Shown in pieces: positions 1,369 through 8,611 of a DNA stretch of 8,611 bases (position 1 is the stretch's first letter; each line of letters opens with the position of its first letter). The stretch comes from a virus (lineage: Duplodnaviria > Heunggongvirae > Uroviricota > Caudoviricetes), in IMG/VR virus record IMGVR_UViG_2563366981_000001, positions 1-8,611 of that record. One strand, written 5' to 3'. Below the pieces are notes generated by a model. It saw only the letters and a program-made list of their open reading frames with translations. It made no database searches and was not told where the DNA came from. The position numbers and the translations under genes were made by a program.

Positions 1369-1444
1369 GCCGATATAGCTCAGTTGGTAGAGCAGCGCAT
1401 TCGTAATGCGAAGGTCGTAGGTTCGACTCCTATTATCGGCACCA
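1369..1444 (+). tRNA. thrW: tRNA-Thr (anticodon CGU), intact, thrW-type; integration target (attL side) for the adjacent prophage
   Basis: 76-nt sequence GCCGATATAGCTCAGTTGGTAGAGCAGCGCATTCGTAATGCGAAGGTCGTAGGTTCGACTCCTATTATCGGCACCA. Acceptor stem GCCGATA/TATCGGC pairs, anticodon loop carries CGT, T-loop GGTTCGACTCC, 3' CCA encoded. thrW is the known attB of P22/Sf6-type phages. Confidence 0.95.
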
Positions 1445-1458
1445 TTTAAATCAATAAG

Positions 1459-2622
1459 TTACACATCATTAGTACCTTCCTTATTTTTTGACTGGGACAA
1501 ATTTGGGACCGATGGGTTCAGGATCGAGTCTATTTGCCGTGCGTGTTCGGTAAGGTGATTAGGTGCAAGGTGAGCATATCGACGAACCATTTCGATAGAC
1601 TCCCAGCCTCCCATTTCCTGTAACACTGACAACGGGACTCCGGCTTGAACCAGCCAACTTGCCCAGGTGTGTCTCAAGTCGTGAAATCTGAAATCATCAA
1701 TACCAGCCCGTCTCAGCGCCGCTTTCCAGGCTGTGTTTGCGTCATACCGCATCTTCCTTACTGTTGGCGCTTTCGTTCCGTCTGGTTTGGTACAGCTTTC
1801 CTTGTACACAAATACCCAACGGTGATGATTCCCGATTTGTTTTTTCAATACGCGACATGCAGTATCATTCAGCGCAACGCCAATTGCGCGGTTTGATTTA
1901 CTCTCTTCCGGGTTTATCCATGCCACCCGGCGCTGCATATCTATTTGTTGCCATTCAAGGTTGATGATGTTCGAGCGTCTTAAACCTGTTGCCAGTGCAA
2001 ATTCAACAACAGACTTTAATGGCTCCGGACATTCATCAATCAGCCTTTGTGCTTCATGGGGCTCCAGCCAGCGGATCCGTTTATTCTTTGGTTGAGGCAC
2101 TTTAATAATTGGTGCCTTATCCAGCATTTTCCATTCACGCTCTGCGGCTCTTAGTAGGGCCTTTATAAATGAAAGATGCGTAGCCTTCGTTGCAACGGAC
2201 GCTGGTTTTGGCGTGTATTCTGGAACAGGTTTCCCTTTTTTTCTGCATGCTTCTGCCCTGAGTTTCCAGTTTTCCTCATGACGCCGGTTCGTCATTTTCT
2301 GCATTGCTGAATAAATTTTTGATTCAGTAATGTCTCTTAGTTGCATTCCTGCGAAATGTTGAAGCCAGAATCCGATCCGGCTTTTGTCATCGTCCAGTGA
2401 TTTTTTATGTGCTTTCTCTTCAAGCCACCTGACACACGCTTCCTCGAACGTTATATCAGGTATTTCACCAAGTTTGCTGACCCGCCATGCTTCAGCCTTT
2501 AGCTTGTCATGGAGTTCTGTCGCCTGCCTTTTGTCCTTTGTTCCAAGAGACTGTTTAAATCTTTTACCGTTCGGCAATGTGAAACTGGCGTACCATATTT
2601 CACCTCTGCGGAAGAGTGACAT
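1459..2622 (-). CDS. int: phage tyrosine integrase (P22/Sf6-like Int)
   Basis: 387-aa ORF; stop codon 14 bp from the tRNA 3' end and convergent with it (classic tRNA-int attL arrangement). N-terminus [22 protein letters not shown] matches recalled P22 Int; C-terminal catalytic region contains [15 protein letters not shown] ... VRRYAHL (R/H-x-x-R/Y tyrosine-recombinase motifs). Confidence 0.92.
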
Positions 2623-2849
2623 TTTCTTTCCTCTGTTATGCCATCACCCGCGCTCACCTGGACAGTATGCAGCGGAGACTGAAGAGCCGCAATGCAGGCT
2701 TGTCGTGTTGTGAGGTAAGGAGATTTATTCTTAGTGGGATCTTTGCGTGTTGCCTGAAGACGCCCTGTGCGTATCCAGTTAATGGCAGTCGGTCTGGATA
2801 TCTTGAGAAAATGACAGGCCTCATCGAGTGTGAGGCTGTATGGCTCCAT
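2499..2849 (-). CDS. xis: excisionase (P22-like Xis)
   Basis: 116-aa reading frame starting at the internal ATG (complement of 2847-2849) of the 144-aa track ORF: [40 protein letters not shown]..., which matches recalled P22 Xis. Lies immediately upstream of int and overlaps its 5' end (2499-2622). Confidence 0.78.
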
Positions 2850-3154
2850 TATTTCACCTCTTGCTGTGACATTGTTGAAAAATGGATACCAGCTCGTTGC
2901 TGCCAGACGATCCAACCGAGAGTCATATCCCATGCCATGTATTCGTTATCGCCGTTTTTTGCTCTCCGACGATCTACTAAGTCACCGAAACGCTTTTCCA
3001 TGAATAATTCATAAGCTTCGCGTTCATCTGGTTCTACTTCCAGCGATAGGAGTGCGATTTCATAAGCACGGCGCTCAATATCGTCTCGCACGTCAAGGCT
3101 GCTGATACGCTCTTTAATTTCTTTAATCAGTTCTTTGTCGGTAAAAGTGATCAT
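2849..3154 (-). CDS. hypothetical acidic phage protein, translationally coupled to xis
   Basis: 101 aa from ATG (complement of 3152-3154), preceded by GGAG 6 nt upstream (CTGGAGCATA-ATG). Its stop TAA overlaps the xis ATG (TAATG at 2847-2851). The track ORF start at 3178 is a TTG inside the IS1 inverted repeat and is rejected. No family recognised. Confidence 0.55.
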   Translation of the reverse strand: MITFTDKELIKEIKERISSLDVRDDIERRAYEIALLSLEVEPDEREAYELFMEKRFGDLVDRRRAKNGDNEYMAWDMTLGWIVWQQRAGIHFSTMSQQEVK

Positions 3155-3219
3155 TATGCTCCAGGGTGATGCTGCCAACTTACTGATTTAGTGTATGATG
3201 GTGTTTTTGAGGTGCTCCA

Positions 3220-3495
3220 GTGGCTTCTGTTTCTATCAGCTGTCCCTCCTGTTCAGCTACTGACGGGGTGGTGCGTAACGGCAAAAGCACCGCCGGACAT
3301 CAGCGCTATCTCTGCTCTCACTGCCGTAAAACATGGCAACTGCAGTTCACTTACACCGCTTCTCAACCCGGTACGCACCAGAAAATCATTGATATGGCCA
3401 TGAATGGCGTTGGATGCCGGGCAACAGCCCGCATTATGGGCGTTGGCCTCAACACGATTTTACGTCACTTAAAAAACTCAGGCCGCAGTCGGTAA
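3220..3495 (+). CDS. insA: IS1 InsA (transposition inhibitor / N-terminal part of InsAB')
   Basis: 91-aa ORF (GTG start) [43 protein letters not shown]... with zinc-finger Cys pattern; matches IS1 InsA. Confidence 0.95.
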
Positions 3496-3917
3496 CCTCG
3501 CGCATACAGCCGGGCAGTGACGTCATCGTCTGCGCGGAAATGGACGAACAGTGGGGCTATGTCGGGGCTAAATCGCGCCAGCGCTGGCTGTTTTACGCGT
3601 ATGACAGTCTCCGGAAGACGGTTGTTGCGCACGTATTCGGTGAACGCACTATGGCGACGCTGGGGCGTCTTATGAGCCTGCTGTCACCCTTTGACGTGGT
3701 GATATGGATGACGGATGGCTGGCCGCTGTATGAATCCCGCCTGAAGGGAAAGCTGCACGTAATCAGCAAGCGATATACGCAGCGAATTGAGCGGCATAAC
3801 CTGAATCTGAGGCAGCACCTGGCACGGCTGGGACGGAAGTCGCTGTCGTTCTCAAAATCGGTGGAGCTGCATGACAAAGTCATCGGGCATTATCTGAACA
3901 TAAAACACTATCAATAA
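3414..3917 (+). CDS. insB: IS1 InsB frame (expressed as InsAB' transposase by -1 frameshift)
   Basis: 167-aa ORF ...[28 protein letters not shown]... in the -1 frame relative to insA; the slippery TTAAAAAAC motif is present at 3469-3477 within the overlap. Confidence 0.9.
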
Positions 3918-3955
3918 GTTGGAGTCATTACCCAGGAATTGTTTCCAGAATATGA

Positions 3956-4330
3956 GGATCGGGAACGCTTCCTGATGATGTTATTGAAATTACAAGAGAA
4001 ACATATGAGCAATTTCTTGGGCTGCATCCAGAAGGGAAAGAAATTGGCGCTGACAGTTCAGGACGGCCAGTATGGATTAATTCCCCACCCCCTTCAAAAG
4101 AGGATGAGGTGTTGACGGCTGAAATGAAAAAAATATCTTTGGTTTCTGAAGTCAATACCTACATCAATACTCATCAGTGGCCTGGCAAAGCGGCGATTGG
4201 TCGTCTGAAAAGTGAGGAACTGGCGCAATATAATTTGTGGCTGGATTATCTGGACGCACTGGAACTGGTTGATACCTCCAGTGCGCCAGATATTGAATGG
4301 CCTACGCCTCCGGCAGTTCAGGCCAGATGA
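3956..4330 (+). pseudogene. tail fiber assembly protein, 5'-truncated fragment (Tfa/U-family C-terminal part)
   Basis: Open frame without stop from 3956 to TGA at 4328-4330 (ATG-initiated part 4109..4330), ending ...LWLDYLDALELVDTSSAPDIEWPTPPAVQAR. The DTS(S/T)APD(I/V)xWP C-terminal signature is that of lambda Tfa / Mu U-type chaperones. No plausible N-terminus; the frame begins 24 bp from the IS1 right end. Confidence 0.5.
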
Positions 4331-4904
4331 CATCCGGCGCGGTGCTGGTATCTGTTGCCGTCACCGCGTCAATGTAATCCAGCACAGCGTTAAGTCGGGT
4401 GTTTTCTGTCTGCGTCAGCTTCCGCCCGGCCTGTAATTTCAGTTGAATCAGACTGATGGAAGCCATTGCAGCATCAATCAGCGACTGGCGCTGTGCTTCT
4501 GCCGCTTCTACTGCGGCGCTATGCTGTGCCTCAGTATCGGTCACCCATTTCTCACCATCCCATTTATCGTATGGCGTTAACGGTGCGAGAGTGGTTGTAT
4601 TTTCGGGATAGTCGCCTGGTGCTGTGATTTCTTTAGCATCTCCCGTTTCGGTGTTATAGACAATTTCACCGCGATGGTCTGGCACATATTCCCATGAGTT
4701 AAAATCTGCAGAACGGCAGATTGCATAACCAGTTTTGTATGAGCCAGGAGCATCTAAACAGGAACATGCCGGAATGCCGACACCCACAGCAAGATATTCA
4801 GTTGATGTGAAAATATATTCCCGTGTTTCACCATCATAGTTATAAACCGTAATATTTCCTGCCTGGGTGGCGATAAATTCGTTATTTAATACATCGTAAT
4901 CCAT
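4302..4904 (-). CDS. tfa: tail fiber assembly protein (Tfa; lambda Tfa / e14 TfaE-like)
   Basis: 200-aa ORF; central ...EYVPDHRGEIVYNTETGDAKEI... and C-terminal ...DTSTAPDVIWPELPEA resemble recalled lambda Tfa (VEDHRGKTVYDVASGDA...; ...RVDTSTAPDIEWP). Start ATG overlaps the stop of the upstream tail-fibre segment (TAATG at 4902-4906). Confidence 0.85.
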   Translation of the reverse strand: MDYDVLNNEFIATQAGNITVYNYDGETREYIFTSTEYLAVGVGIPACSCLDAPGSYKTGYAICRSADFNSWEYVPDHRGEIVYNTETGDAKEITAPGDYPENTTTLAPLTPYDKWDGEKWVTDTEAQHSAAVEAAEAQRQSLIDAAMASISLIQLKLQAGRKLTQTENTRLNAVLDYIDAVTATDTSTAPDVIWPELPEA

Positions 4905-5404
4905 TATGCAGCCCTCACGATATAATTAAAGGCAATGTTACGAGGACGGTTTTCGTTTGCAGTTGGAACAACTCTGGAAGCATCAAATGTTACTCGCTTT
5001 GCATAACCACCTTTAATTGAATCAGATGAAGCATCTCCGATGACGCTGGTTATAAAAACGCCAGAGTCAGAAGGATAGGTATTAAACCTGACATCTACTA
5101 ATGCACCAATTATATTTCGAATGGTATCTCCCTGTGACGAAAGCAAGCTACGGTTAGTATCAATCCCTCTTCCATCATCCCAGCCACGAATAAACTCACC
5201 GCGTAAATCAGGCAATTTATTTGTCGGGTAAACCTTTGCCAGTTCCGGGTATTCTTCAGCAGAAAAAGCCGCTCCGTTGCATTTCAGCCAGCCTGTTGGC
5301 GGAGTGGCGGAAGGCCACGGAACAGGCACGCCAACGGGTAATGCCGAACCTTCTCCCAAACCAACGTTTATGAAAATGCAGAAATAACGAGCAGATGACA
5401 TCAT
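4904..5404 (-). CDS. side tail fiber protein, C-terminal variable segment (e14 StfE-like; lacks the constant N-terminal part)
   Basis: 166-aa ORF directly upstream of and coupled to tfa, with a hix/gix-like crossover site inside its first ~20 codons and an invertase gene adjacent. This is the arrangement of the Sv'/U' half of Mu G, P1 C and e14 P invertible segments. Not a stand-alone gene. Confidence 0.7.
   Translation of the reverse strand: MMSSARYFCIFINVGLGEGSALPVGVPVPWPSATPPTGWLKCNGAAFSAEEYPELAKVYPTNKLPDLRGEFIRGWDDGRGIDTNRSLLSSQGDTIRNIIGALVDVRFNTYPSDSGVFITSVIGDASSDSIKGGYAKRVTFDASRVVPTANENRPRNIAFNYIVRAA
5351..5376. promoter_or_regulatory. candidate invertase crossover site (pix/hix/gix-like 26-bp site, 12-2-12 with AA centre)
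   Basis: TTCTCCCAAACC-AA-CGTTTATGAAAA. Both half-sites fit the recalled Hin/Gin half-site pattern TTnTCnnAAACC (right half as reverse complement TTTTCATAAACG); 18/26 identities to recalled gix TTATCCAAAACCTCGGTTTACAGGAA. It sits at the 5' end of the stf variable segment, 55 bp from pin. Confidence 0.45.
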
Positions 5405-5430
5405 TCCTGCTTTTGTCAGGGAGATCTACC

Positions 5431-5985
5431 ATGCTTATTGGCTATGTACGTGTGTCAACAAATGACCAGAACACAGATCTACAACGTAATGCGCTGAACT
5501 GTGCAGGATGCGAGCTGATTTTTGAAGACAAGATAAGCGGTACAAAGTCCGAAAGGCCGGGACTGAAAAAACTGCTCAGGACATTATCGGCAGGTGACAC
5601 TCTGGTTGTCTGGAAGCTGGATCGGCTGGGGCGTAGTATGCGGCATCTGGTCATTCTGGTTGAGGAGTTGCGCGAACGTGGCGTTAATTTTCGCAGCCTG
5701 ACGGATGCTATTGATACCAGCACACCGATGGGGCGTTTTTTCTTTCATGTGATGGGGGCCCTGGCTGAAATGGAACGAGAACTGATTGTTGAACGAACAA
5801 AAGCTGGACTGGAGGCTGCTCGCGCACAGGGACGAATTGGTGGACGTCGTCCCAAACTTACACCAGAACAATGGGCGCAGGCCGGGCGATTAATTGCATC
5901 AGGCGTTCCTCGCCAGAAGGTGGCGATCATCTATGATGTTGGTATATCGACACTGTATAAGAAGTTTCCGGTCGGAGATAAATGA
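5431..5985 (+). CDS. pin: serine DNA invertase (Pin/Gin/Hin/Cin family)
   Basis: 184 aa from ATG at 5431 (AGGGAGA 7 nt upstream): MLIGYVRVSTNDQNTDLQRNAL... with catalytic Ser in the YVRVSTNDQ motif and a C-terminal HTH (GRIGGRRPKLT...VAIIYDVGISTLYKK). Near-collinear with recalled e14 PinE. The upstream ATG at 5395 is rejected as an N-terminal extension. Confidence 0.93.
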   Translation: MLIGYVRVSTNDQNTDLQRNALNCAGCELIFEDKISGTKSERPGLKKLLRTLSAGDTLVVWKLDRLGRSMRHLVILVEELRERGVNFRSLTDAIDTSTPMGRFFFHVMGALAEMERELIVERTKAGLEAARAQGRIGGRRPKLTPEQWAQAGRLIASGVPRQKVAIIYDVGISTLYKKFPVGDK

Positions 5986-6026
5986 AACCGTAGCACGTCG
6001 TATGCAAGATCGTGCTGCGGTTTATG
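5986..6026. terminator. candidate bidirectional rho-independent terminator between convergent pin and the GIY-YIG gene
   Basis: Imperfect hairpin AACCG-t-AGCACG ... CGTGCT-g-CGGTT (5986-6022) followed by TTTAT, in the 57-bp gap between the pin stop (5985) and the stop of the convergent gene (6043). Confidence 0.35.
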
Positions 6027-6042
6027 CTTATCACTTAAAGAC

Positions 6043-6912
<870 letters not shown>

Positions 6913-6991
6913 CTAAGCCTTTGAATTTACAAGTACAAAAAAGATACTTTTCCTCATAATGTGAATTAATTTTATGTTTCGTTTGATGATT

Positions 6992-7057
6992 GGACCGGTC
7001 TCGAAAACCGGAGTAGGGGCAACTCTACCGGGGGGGCAAATCCCCCTCTCTCCGCCA
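6992..7057 (+). tRNA. tRNA-Ser(CGA) 3' fragment (serU-like; anticodon stem to CCA end); pseudo-tRNA / att-site remnant, not a functional gene
   Basis: GGACCGGTCTCGAAAACCGGAGTAGGGGCAACTCTACCGGGGGGGCAAATCCCCCTCTCTCCGCCA matches the recalled 3' two-thirds of E. coli tRNA-Ser(CGA): anticodon loop CT-CGA-AA, long variable arm, acceptor 3' strand TCTCTCC + CCA. The 5' ~24 nt (acceptor 5' strand, D-arm) are absent, and the T-loop reads GGGCAAATC rather than the expected GTTCAAATC. Confidence 0.7.
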
Positions 7058-7640
7058 CTTTATCAATGACTTATCTCCCGACTTCCCGCCTTGCTTTTCC
7101 TAAACAGAACAATCGTAGAATATTCTTGAAGGGTTAGATCGTCACTGTTTTCTGTTCGATACTGTGACATTCAGCACTTGATTCGCTATGGATCTGACAG
7201 GAAGGTTTCGAGCGAAAATCTGCAGTTATTCAGTCGTTTTCTTATCGGTCACCATTATTCTTTTAGACATTGATCCTACAAAGCTGCCGCAAAGTTGGTG
7301 GTGGGAACTGAAGTTGCGTAGAGAAGGGGTCAATACCCGGAGGCAAACATGGGCTGGCAAAAGTGTAGCGGTATTAGGCGCAGCTATTTAGCCTAGTTAT
7401 GTTTTATGAAAACTTGATATCATATAAGTGTCTTACTTATTGGCTGTAAATAAGGTTTTCTAAGGAATTGTTTCTTTAGCATCATTTGTAACTGTAACGG
7501 AATTTATAATCCTTTACTTTATTTTTACGGTATTTTTTATCACACCCTATTTTTTATGTGGTTTTTTATACTAAAGTTTGGCAAAGTGAACTTTATATGC
7601 ATATACTTCATCCTGGTTTCAGTTAAATTGGGTGGATGAT

Positions 7641-8384
7641 ATGGCAACTACATGTTCAGTTATATTGATTTTGGAGTCCTTTGATGTTTATTTCGGAAAA
7701 GAGAGTGTGTTTCTGGATAGAGGTTTATCTGTACTTGTCGACTCTAGCTATAGAGATTTTTTCCTGACATATCCTGAAAGAGTGATAGTGGCGGATTTTG
7801 GCGCTGAGTTTATTAGTCGCTATTTGAAAGCTAATAACTTAAGGGATATTTCTGATTGTAGGGAATATCCATCTTATTTAAAAATAAACTTTGCTGACTT
7901 CAGTTTAATTAAAGGATTAATTAGTTGGGCTAATCACTGTGCTGAATATATAGAAATTTTTGATGAGTCTATTGCTTTTACATGTCTCTCTGCATTTTCT
8001 TCTGAAAAACAATTTGGAGTATTTCTGTTTGGATGTTTGAAAAGCACAGGGGCTAAAGTTAAAACGATTATTCATACGGATTTATCTGCACCATGGCATC
8101 TTAAGGATATATCATCAAGATTATATCTCAGCGAAAGTTTACTAAAGAGGAAATTGAAAGAAGAGGGGGTATCATTCAGTAAGATCATACTTGATGAGAG
8201 GATGCAAATGGCTGAATATTTACTCAGCACTCGTTGTTATCCTATTAGTAAAGTAGCTAAGGTCTGTGGTTATGCCAGTGTCTCATACTTTACTTATGTA
8301 TTTAGACGTTATTTTGGTGTTTCTCCAAGTCAATACTCTCAGAGGAGTTCAGAAAGTAAAATTCTTACTCACCAGGGAATCTAA
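7641..8384 (+). CDS. AraC/XylS-family transcriptional regulator (AppY/YdeO/EnvY-like)
   Basis: 247 aa from ATG at 7641 (GGTGGA 5 nt upstream; the track's GTG at 7632 is less likely). N-terminus MATTCSVILILESF parallels recalled AppY MDYVCSVVFICQSF and YdeO MSLVCSVIFIHHAF. C-terminal double HTH: ...PWHLKDISSRLYLSESLLKRKLKEEGVSFSKIILDERMQMA...CGYASVSYFTYVFRRYFGVSPSQY. The gene and its surroundings are visibly AT-rich. Confidence 0.85.
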   Translation: MATTCSVILILESFDVYFGKESVFLDRGLSVLVDSSYRDFFLTYPERVIVADFGAEFISRYLKANNLRDISDCREYPSYLKINFADFSLIKGLISWANHCAEYIEIFDESIAFTCLSAFSSEKQFGVFLFGCLKSTGAKVKTIIHTDLSAPWHLKDISSRLYLSESLLKRKLKEEGVSFSKIILDERMQMAEYLLSTRCYPISKVAKVCGYASVSYFTYVFRRYFGVSPSQYSQRSSESKILTHQGI

Positions 8385-8388
8385 TCAT

Positions 8389-8611
8389 TGTTCTTGCCCC
8401 CTTATTTCCAGACAGGGGGTGTATCTTAAGTTAACGTTACCCGCTGACGTCGATATTCTCGCGGAGAGCGATAACCCAACGCACTGTGCGGATGGTTTTC
8501 ATTGTAATGTTCGATCGCTACTGCAAGATTATGCAATGCCGTTCTTATATTCGGTTTCGGCATGAACGCGATGTAGTCTTCCTTCATCGTTTTCACGAAC
8601 CTTTCTGCCAT
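8389..8611 (-). mobile_element. IS2-group (IS3 family) insertion sequence, right end only; continues beyond the window
   Basis: Terminal sequence TTGCCCCCTTATTTCCAGACA (8395-8415) resembles the recalled IS2 right inverted repeat (TTTGCCCCTATATTTCCAGACA); a transposase C-terminus lies immediately inside. The exact terminal base (about 8386-8392) is uncertain. Confidence 0.6.
8426..8611 (-). CDS. IS3-family (IS2-group) transposase OrfB, C-terminal 61 codons (partial; N-terminus outside window)
   Basis: ...[55 protein letters not shown] closely parallels the recalled IS2 InsD C-terminus (...AESFVKTIKRDYISIMPKP...[25 protein letters not shown]), including the conserved Glu of the DDE triad in the N-x-x-AE-x-F motif. 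The ATG at the window edge is coincidental. Confidence 0.7.

Follow-up and report, generated by a model that had tools for sequence, protein, structure and literature searches.

The analysed stretch of DNA (the window, 8,611 nucleotides) carries an apparently intact DNA invertase gene, pin, beside a tail-fibre segment with a single crossover site, which raises the questions of whether the segment is locked in one orientation and why pin has stayed intact. The contig L028 (GCA_000351525.1, KB732702.1) is 100% identical to the window and provided a 20.6-kb source locus. An Rfam scan of the window gave one match, a tRNA gene (thrW), and the att repeat at window 1399-1462 was found again at window-equivalent positions 8874-8937 of L028. 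The window holds a remnant of approximately 7.5 kb, which is the decayed right end of a prophage of the e14 type integrated at thrW. The intact form combines a lambdoid early region and a contractile tail of the Mu type with an invertible tail-fibre segment of the P type. We propose, with a probability of about 0.85 for the explanation as a whole, that an IS1-associated deletion took the partner site and froze the segment, and that pin is intact since the deletion is recent. The following anatomy was established:

1369-1444: thrW tRNA gene
3165-3932 (+): IS1, 768 bp, with insA/insB and terminal inverted repeats; marks the deletion joint
3933-4330 (+): tfa pseudogene remnant in the opposite orientation, cut by IS1
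4302-4904 (-): intact tfa, 200 aa, inside the former invertible segment; PF02413 Caudo_TAP, E 2.3e-32
4904-5404 (-): variable C-terminal part of stf; PF07484 Collar, E 4e-15
5351-5376 (+): surviving 26-bp crossover site, the pin-proximal pix, identified by e14 identity, matrix score and the breakpoint in relatives
5351-5362, 5363-5364 and 5365-5376 (+): inner half, central AA and outer half of the site
5431-5985 (+): pin, serine DNA invertase, 184 aa, with Resolvase and HTH_7 domains
5449-5516 (+): putative enhancer region, at the position of the cin enhancer (nt 19-86 of the gene)

Analysis of the crossover site established its identity. Its sequence, TTCTCCCAAACC-AA-CGTTTATGAAAA, has the 12-2-12 architecture and is the sole match at ≤3 mismatches in the window, with none of 200 shuffles giving a match. 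A weight matrix for half-sites, derived from 20 related sites, gave 5351-5376 a score of 31.3, compared with a median shuffle maximum of 7.4. The site is identical at 26 of 26 positions to the pin-proximal site of K-12 e14, and the published inverted repeat of the e14 P segment, CCTTCTCCCAAACCAA, corresponds to window 5349-5364. It starts 80 bp before the pin ATG, the same offset as in the relatives and in K-12 e14, and the inversion breakpoint in relatives, at 5350-5369, falls inside it. The idea that the 26-bp match to the 12-2-12 consensus is a chance resemblance is untenable in the face of the complete e14 identity, the lack of matches among the shuffles, the retention of the position in all relatives and the breakpoint within the site. 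The initial annotation was therefore right to call a Hin/Gin-type crossover site here, and its conservation in homologous elements was found in the shared position. The adjacency of site and pin likewise stands, whereas the distance between them measures 54 bp instead of the 55 bp claimed.

Comparison with related prophages established that the cassette exists in both orientations. All 12 relatives with a full segment, as well as K-12 e14, contain two inverted sites with the inner half TTCTCCCAAACCAA in common, and in every intact relative the second inverted site lies 1.5-1.9 kb away, its two halves being TTCTCCCAAACCAA and GGTTTTCGAGAG. Among other genomes the cassette, 99.7-99.8% identical, is present in both orientations, with a breakpoint that falls within the site: L025 runs collinear to the window (99.9% over 3933-8611), and in L026 and L029 the cassette lies the other way round, their breakpoint overlap being 5350-5369. 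Homology is continuous through the site in 915 of 5,426 complete E. coli genomes, and among the other matches listed, which were sampled from across the ranking, it ends at query positions 198-200 (window 5348-5350). In the intact relatives, Pin would recombine the two inverted 26-bp sites, the distal one within stf at the NLGLGE codons and the proximal one 54 bp upstream of pin, and inversion would change which variable stf end and tfa join the constant stf N-terminus. Protein alignment revealed that in L026 the variable part found in the window is fused at NLGLGE to a 95-aa constant N-terminus, forming a 249-aa fibre.

A functional segment of this kind has two inverted flanking 26-bp sites, a crossover sequence of the 12-2-12 family, a constant stf 5' part outside the segment and two opposed sets of stf end and tfa. 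The window retains a crossover sequence of this family at one site and one intact set (4302-5364), and the constant part is absent. The half-site matrix detected no second crossover site, the next best scores being 8.4 (window) and 8.6 (L028 locus, 20.6 kb), in agreement with the initial annotation, whose statement was confined to the window. Homology to intact prophages ends at 3164 and restarts at 3933; beyond these breakpoints the intact relatives continue with early genes on one side (9.4 kb in L013) and tail genes on the other (more than 9.6 kb in L025), so that at least 19 kb of prophage has been replaced by a single IS1. Among the DNA lost are the constant stf part, a gp53-like variable end and the distal site, which establishes the loss of the partner. 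As a single site remains, Pin would lack a partner in cis and the segment would be frozen, a state that the initial annotation had suggested and that the disappearance of the partner site with the IS1-associated deletion supports. The orientation kept is that with the Collar-type stf end beside pin, as in the K-12 reference sequence.

Analysis of the IS1 element points to how the deletion may have arisen. InsA and DDE_Tnp_IS1 Pfam matches were found on the same genes in the source contig, and the element is 99.5% identical to the IS1 copies of L002. A target-site duplication of 8-9 bp is absent, as the flanking 9-mers are ATGCTCCAG (3156-3164) and CAGGAATTG (3933-3941); this indicates an IS1-mediated adjacent deletion or IS1-IS1 recombination rather than a simple insertion, a mechanism that we infer from the missing duplication only. 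The same IS1/tfa joint occurs in short contigs of other samples (L038 and L039, 99.96%; L040, 97.4%), SRR13172358 and ERR11477337 carry this junction, and neither IS1 junction was found in 5,426 complete E. coli genomes. One unrelated IS1/tfa junction, with 87% identity, turned up among those genomes.

The tail-fibre genes at the joint are those described initially: the Pfam domains support an stf variable segment and tfa on the minus strand, and the opposing tfa is indeed truncated by IS1. Relative to the 147-aa tfa of L025, this plus-strand gene lacks its first 45 bp (15 codons) and in addition carries a 1-bp deletion near 3959 that shifts the frame; the source assembly annotates just a 73-aa Caudo_TAP fragment there. 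The intact 200-aa Tfa occurs in exactly the same form in 205 blocks from e14-like, P2-like and lambda-like prophages. The stf reading frame consists of a 13-codon leader, whose coding sequence comprises the spacer on the pin side and the outer half-site, and an in-segment part at 4904-5364, and in both the window and L025 this short leader alone precedes the variable part. A look-up of the 166-aa stf frame returned no record, and the source assembly annotates 165 aa. That the variable part is promoterless, as had been proposed, is unproven. Like stfE as annotated in K-12, the frame begins with an ATG of its own that lies outside the segment, at 5404, and a published study assigned a function to the protein made from the leader after inversion (PMC12529663). 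A promoter/terminator scan of 3900-6200 yielded 6 promoter-like sites against 4.0 ± 2.0 expected, which is at chance level.

The pin gene starts at ATG 5431 according to its homologues and not at the in-frame upstream ATG 5395, and its product has the catalytic serine, the C-terminal HTH and a length within the ~180-195 aa of the invertase family (PF00239 Resolvase, E 8.9e-52; PF02796 HTH_7, E 5e-13, residues 138-180 of 184). An intact pin beside the remnant of a Gin/Cin/Pin-type invertible tail-fibre segment, as first described, is thus confirmed. Over residues 1-181 Pin aligns with two structures of Mu Gin, 3UJ3 and 4M6F (E 1e-93); Ser9 is kept, with MLIGYVRVS9TNDQ aligning to the serine of 4M6F, where 3UJ3 has Ala; Pin also matches the Hin DNA-binding domain 1HCR. 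Invertases dependent on Fis and the enhancer have basic residues at Hin positions 47/48/51 as well as Gln151/Arg154/Leu155 (PMC3798978). In the alignment, Pin possesses these residues: K46, K47 and R50 align with basic Gin residues, and AQAGRLI matches Gin EQAGRLL at its Q, R and L, the Hin numbering apparently being offset by one from that of Pin. The protein is 95% identical (175/184) to K-12 PinE and occurs unchanged in 2,963 blocks, complete prophages included, among them prophages whose cassette shows both orientations. Pin is presumably still active.

A functional segment also has a Fis-binding recombinational enhancer in cis. In the P7 record, a putative enhancer is annotated at nt 19-86 of cin, and the pin/cin alignment is ungapped; we therefore assign 5449-5516 as a putative enhancer by positional homology to cin only. 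Two Fis-core-like 15-mers of the form G-N13-C lie at 5452-5466 and 5501-5515, with centres 49 bp apart, but such pairs are common by chance, the 324 bp of the pin 5' region containing four, namely the pair at the expected place and three others. Comparison of pin, cin and gin revealed no excess conservation of third codon positions within nt 19-86 over the remainder of the gene (p = 1.0). The DNA of 5449-5516 is identical to that of inverting relatives. In the native Hin system, the enhancer lies ~100 bp from one site (PMC3798978). A 17-nt inverted repeat was also noted at 5275-5291 / 5761-5777; it was rejected as a structural element, with both arms coding and ~0.1 pairs expected by chance on a rough estimate, and is regarded as a coincidence.

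Comparison of the window with L025 established how low the divergence is: over 4,680 bp the two differ by 3 substitutions and 1 indel, all lying outside pin and the site. The pin gene, the proximal site and the enhancer-equivalent DNA are unchanged relative to the intact relatives. At ~0.1% divergence only ~0.4-0.5 substitutions are expected in pin, so an unchanged pin is uninformative on selection, and its intactness most likely reflects a recent deletion rather than selection. Selection would be at work if Pin acted in trans, inverting tail-fibre segments with flanking pix sites in the genome's other prophages. Published precedents are inversion of the e14 P segment by PinQ, PinR and PinE alike, of the Salmonella H segment by Fin, and of both H and G by PinE (PMC12529663); the window Pin keeps Ser9 and the residues reported as specific to Fis/enhancer-dependent invertases. 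In all, 4,002 places matching the pix/pin region were found in the 2,399 genomes with a match, up to 9 per genome, and an independent IS1-truncated remnant, L004, also retains an identical Pin. However, the ~0.1% divergence from intact relatives makes such selection unnecessary, and the adjoining tfa pseudogene is preserved equally well; we consider this explanation unlikely. It is doubtful, too, that the right end was kept for the neighbouring defence gene with pin and the site hitchhiking, although the 6043-6819 (-) product matches PADLOC PD-T4-3, a GIY-YIG protein, over its full length (E 2.4e-140), this gene sits in the mcrA slot of e14, and pin, the GIY-YIG gene and an AraC-family gene co-persist in the decayed L001, L004 and L005. 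Recency again removes the need for selection in the window, and pin occurs without the GIY-YIG gene in some relatives, such as L006 and L012.

The recent deletion would leave the segment locked unless a distant partner, for example in another prophage, allowed large chromosomal inversions or deletions through 5351-5376. Serine invertases do act on sites of other elements, as the trans-action examples illustrate, and they also use secondary sites, such as the quasi-sites of Cin. Against this, neither the window nor the ~6 kb flanking it on each side in the source contig yielded a candidate scoring above the shuffles, and efficient inversion requires a suitable geometry of site and enhancer, making an unlocked segment very improbable. 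It is improbable, to a lesser degree, that the orphan Pin, possibly together with the orphan site, is active on pix-flanked segments in other prophages of the same chromosome. If it were, the remnant would be a trans-acting switch controller, as reported for PinQ/PinR, and might influence phage adsorption. In a related scenario, large chromosomal inversions would result from recombination between the single site and those of other prophages.

The frozen remnant left by a recent IS1-associated deletion represents the decay of a known system, ordinary for prophages, and has little importance beyond annotation. It provides a clean natural case of such a deletion freezing a phase-variable tail-fibre switch, in which an intact invertase gene with a single site is by itself no sign of function, and its interest would rise only if Pin drives inversion at other loci. 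A recent study reported that orphan Pin recombinases govern an anti-phage phenotype by way of the e14 P segment (PMC12529663). The window and L004 are two independent IS1-locked remnants at thrW, frozen in opposite states, and together they could act as natural locked-off and locked-on controls for the anti-phage P-segment model.

Among known systems, the closest likeness is to the P-pin region of K-12 e14 (stfP-tfaP / tfaE-stfE / pinE). The proximal site is identical, the relatives share the distal site, the order tfa / stf(Collar) / site / pin is the same, and the Collar-type end beside pin is a StfE homologue with 71% identity. In contrast to e14, which lies at icd, the window prophage lies at thrW; it lacks the distal site, the constant stf part and the stfP-type end, its second tfa is a pseudogene, and it carries the PD-T4-3 GIY-YIG gene where e14 has mcrA. 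In K-12 delta-stfP and delta-stfE strains, loss of one inverted repeat blocks inversion (PMC12529663); the window is the natural equivalent of the delta-stfP strain, except that its deletion is a natural, IS1-associated one and the rest of the prophage is gone too. The pinQ and pinR genes of Qin and Rac similarly combine an intact invertase with a decayed prophage and adjoining tail-fibre DNA that does not invert, and a BLAST survey revealed inversions in e14 alone and none in Rac or Qin (PMC12529663). PinQ and PinR, however, are 38% identical to PinE, whereas the window Pin is a close PinE relative, and their trans activity is demonstrated, whereas for the window Pin it is a candidate function. 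Mu G-gin and P1/P7 C-cin share the 12-2-12 site and the logic of an invertible stf/tfa cassette, with Gin aligning to Pin over residues 1-181 and cin having an enhancer annotated in the 5' part of the invertase gene; the title of Kahmann et al. 1985, cited in PMC3798978, places the gin enhancer inside the invertase gene as well. Unlike the window, these are complete systems with only ~72-73% DNA identity, and in P7 the site is located at the 3' end of cin.

Over its full 8,611 bases the window matches a draft E. coli chromosome scaffold at 100% identity (GCA_000351525.1 KB732702.1, the 20.6-kb source locus L028), and its features are arranged as follows:

1-1254, proA
1369-1444, thrW, tRNA-Thr(CGU)
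1459-2622, minus strand, tyrosine integrase
2499-2849, minus strand, excisionase-like HTH gene
2849-3154, minus strand, 101-aa ORF with ATG at 3154
3165-3932, IS1, complete 768-bp copy
3933-4330, plus strand, tfa fragment
4302-4904, minus strand, tfa (Pfam Caudo_TAP, E 2.3e-32)
4904-5404, minus strand, stf ORF with Collar domain (Pfam Collar, E 4e-15)
5351-5376, 26-bp site, exact sequence match
5431-5985, plus strand, pin (Resolvase and HTH_7 domains)
6043-6819, minus strand, GIY-YIG gene
7632-8384, plus strand, AraC-family gene
window right end, after the AraC-family gene, IS3-family fragment

The 64-bp repeat of the thrW 3' end (1399-1462) is present again in L028 at window-equivalent 8874-8937 (L028 5968-6031), and the prophage remnant therefore measures approximately 7.5 kb. 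The AraC-family regulator gene and the IS3-family transposase fragment (7632-8611) lie within the prophage borders because they are placed between pin and the second att repeat; this right-end block accompanies pin in many genomes. At 4302-4330 the 3' ends of the two convergent tfa genes share 29 bp, an overlap that recurs in all relatives.

The sequence TTCTCCCAAACC-AA-CGTTTATGAAAA occurs exactly at 5351-5376, where the initial annotation had placed it, and is the single match in the window at up to three mismatches, with 0 of 200 shuffles matching. Three independent grounds show that it is a real crossover site. It is identical at 26/26 positions to the pin-proximal site of the P segment, the invertible tail-fibre segment of the E. 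coli K-12 cryptic prophage e14, which also has a distal site, TTCTCCCAAACCAA-GGTTTTCGAGAG, in inverted orientation; the published P-segment inverted repeat CCTTCTCCCAAACCAA corresponds to window 5349-5364 (PMC12529663). The match is conserved in homologous elements, with the same pair of sites, 1.5-1.9 kb apart, in every relative with a complete segment (L001-L003, L005-L012, L025, L026, and L029). The paired sites share a common inner half, and their outer halves differ and remain with the flanks. The cassette over 3933-5369 (99.7-99.8% identical) occurs in both orientations relative to pin, being collinear with the window in L025 and inverted in L026 and L029, with alignments overlapping at 5350-5369. 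In L026, the window's variable part follows a constant N-terminus of 95 aa, and the junction falls exactly at the site-encoded peptide NLGLGE. Homology continues through the site in 915 of the 5,426 complete E. coli genomes; in the remaining rows among the matches listed, which are a sample spread over the ranking, it ends at 5348-5350, where a different cassette starts.

The identical 200-aa Tfa, together with its stf/tfa cassette (DNA identity of 99.6-99.8% in L024, L027, and L032, and 94.8% in L023), was also found in P2-like and lambda-like prophages, adjoining different invertases of 187-188 aa and with slightly different distal sites (e.g., ...GGTATGCGAGAA); the invertible cassette thus travels as a module from one phage type to another. 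In O157:H7 (L001 9015-9725), the element at this locus keeps both crossover sites, with a replication-gene fragment, not the usual stf N-terminus, next to the DNA upstream of the distal site; this segment may still invert without yielding a usable fibre.

Like its annotated homologues, the pin gene begins at the ATG corresponding to 5431, and it adjoins the site as described earlier, with a gap of 54 bp rather than 55 bp. The description of pin as intact also holds: in addition to the Resolvase and HTH_7 domains, Pin residues 1-181 align to Mu Gin structures (E 1e-93) with Ser9 in place, and 175 of 184 residues are identical to K-12 PinE. In the assembly collection, 2,963 blocks contain the exact 184-aa Pin, most of them within complete prophages with Mu-type tails. 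A 17-nt inverted repeat (5275-5291 / 5761-5777), complementary at 16 of 17 positions, encloses the site together with the first 60% of pin and is kept in relatives with the Collar cassette; both arms are coding, and it is probably a coincidence.

Comparison with intact prophages revealed that homology stops at 3164 and resumes at 3933, on either side of IS1. The flanking 9-mers, ATGCTCCAG (3156-3164) and CAGGAATTG (3933-3941), differ, so no target-site duplication is present. Past these breakpoints, the early genes of intact relatives extend for 9.4 kb (L013 and others), and their tail genes occupy more than 9.6 kb, followed by head genes (L025 and L026). The DNA removed therefore amounts to at least 19 kb and included the distal site as well as the constant part of stf and its gp53-like variable end. 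The loss would have occurred via IS1-mediated adjacent deletion or recombination between two IS1 copies, either of which fits because a single IS1 without duplication remains. The opposing tfa is truncated by IS1, as previously noted, lacking 45 bp of its 5' end, and a 1-bp deletion (missing G) near 3959 relative to all intact copies adds a frameshift. The start codon of the 101-aa ORF (ATG at 3154) has IS1 10 bp upstream, and the element may affect expression of this gene.

With a weight matrix from 13 distinct half-sites (shuffles: median maximum 7.4, 95th percentile 12.7), the real site scores 31.3, and the next best scores are 8.4 in the window and 8.6 in the 20.6-kb locus. The absence of a second crossover site, as initially annotated, thus extends to approximately 6 kb beyond each end of the window, and the segment being locked in one orientation is well supported. 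In this frozen state the Collar-type StfE homologue stands beside pin, as in the K-12 reference orientation. That the stf variable part is promoterless, as initially inferred, is possible. Its ORF begins at an ATG of its own (5404), which lies in the spacer outside the segment, and annotated K-12 stfE is arranged likewise; a promoter scan around the ORF gave results at chance level. According to Kirigo et al. (PMC12529663), StfE2, the protein made from this leader after inversion, blocks T2 adsorption. A second, independent IS1-truncated single-site remnant at thrW was observed in L004 (8724-10555; GCA_900604235.1), with identical Pin, opposite IS1 orientation, and different breakpoints; because its pin-side leader runs into the gp53-like variable end (MPFARYLCIFINVGLGE...), the state in which it is frozen is the opposite one, 'StfE2-type'.

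The putative enhancer annotated in the P7 record (nt 19-86 of cin) aligns without gaps to pin 5449-5516, which contains two G-N13-C 15-mers with centres 49 bp apart, pairs of a kind frequent by chance. Conservation at synonymous positions there is no higher than in the rest of pin. The firmest statement is that relatives with inverting segments have exactly this candidate enhancer DNA.

Three substitutions (5052, 6869, and 7480) and one indel separate the window from L025 over 3933-8611, all of them outside pin and the site; in the left arm, L021 and L022 are 2-5 substitutions away. The same IS1/tfa joint appears in short contigs of other sequencing runs (L038 and L039, 99.96%; L040, 97.4% identity) and in 0 of 5,426 complete genomes, a distribution that points to a small, young lineage. 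At this divergence only about 0.4-0.5 changes are expected in pin, so its intactness is uninformative on selection.

The proposal that pin is retained for action elsewhere in trans appears unlikely. Such action is documented for related invertases, the e14 segment being inverted by PinQ, PinR, and PinE, with Fin acting on H and PinE on H and G (PMC12529663), and structure alignment indicated that the invertase-specific residues contacting Fis/enhancer are kept in Pin (residue list from PMC3798978); however, trans action is superfluous as an explanation for an intact pin. Just downstream, in the slot held by mcrA in e14, the GIY-YIG (LEM-3-like) protein gives a full-length match (E 2.4e-140) to PADLOC PD-T4-3, a single-gene anti-phage defence candidate. 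That the prophage end survives through this neighbouring gene competes with the trans-action reading, and we regard it as rather doubtful. Demonstrated trans activity would be the sole route to greater interest; the locus, whose features the initial annotation described correctly and with care, is otherwise an ordinary example of the known e14-type P-pin switch that has decayed recently, adding little new to that system.
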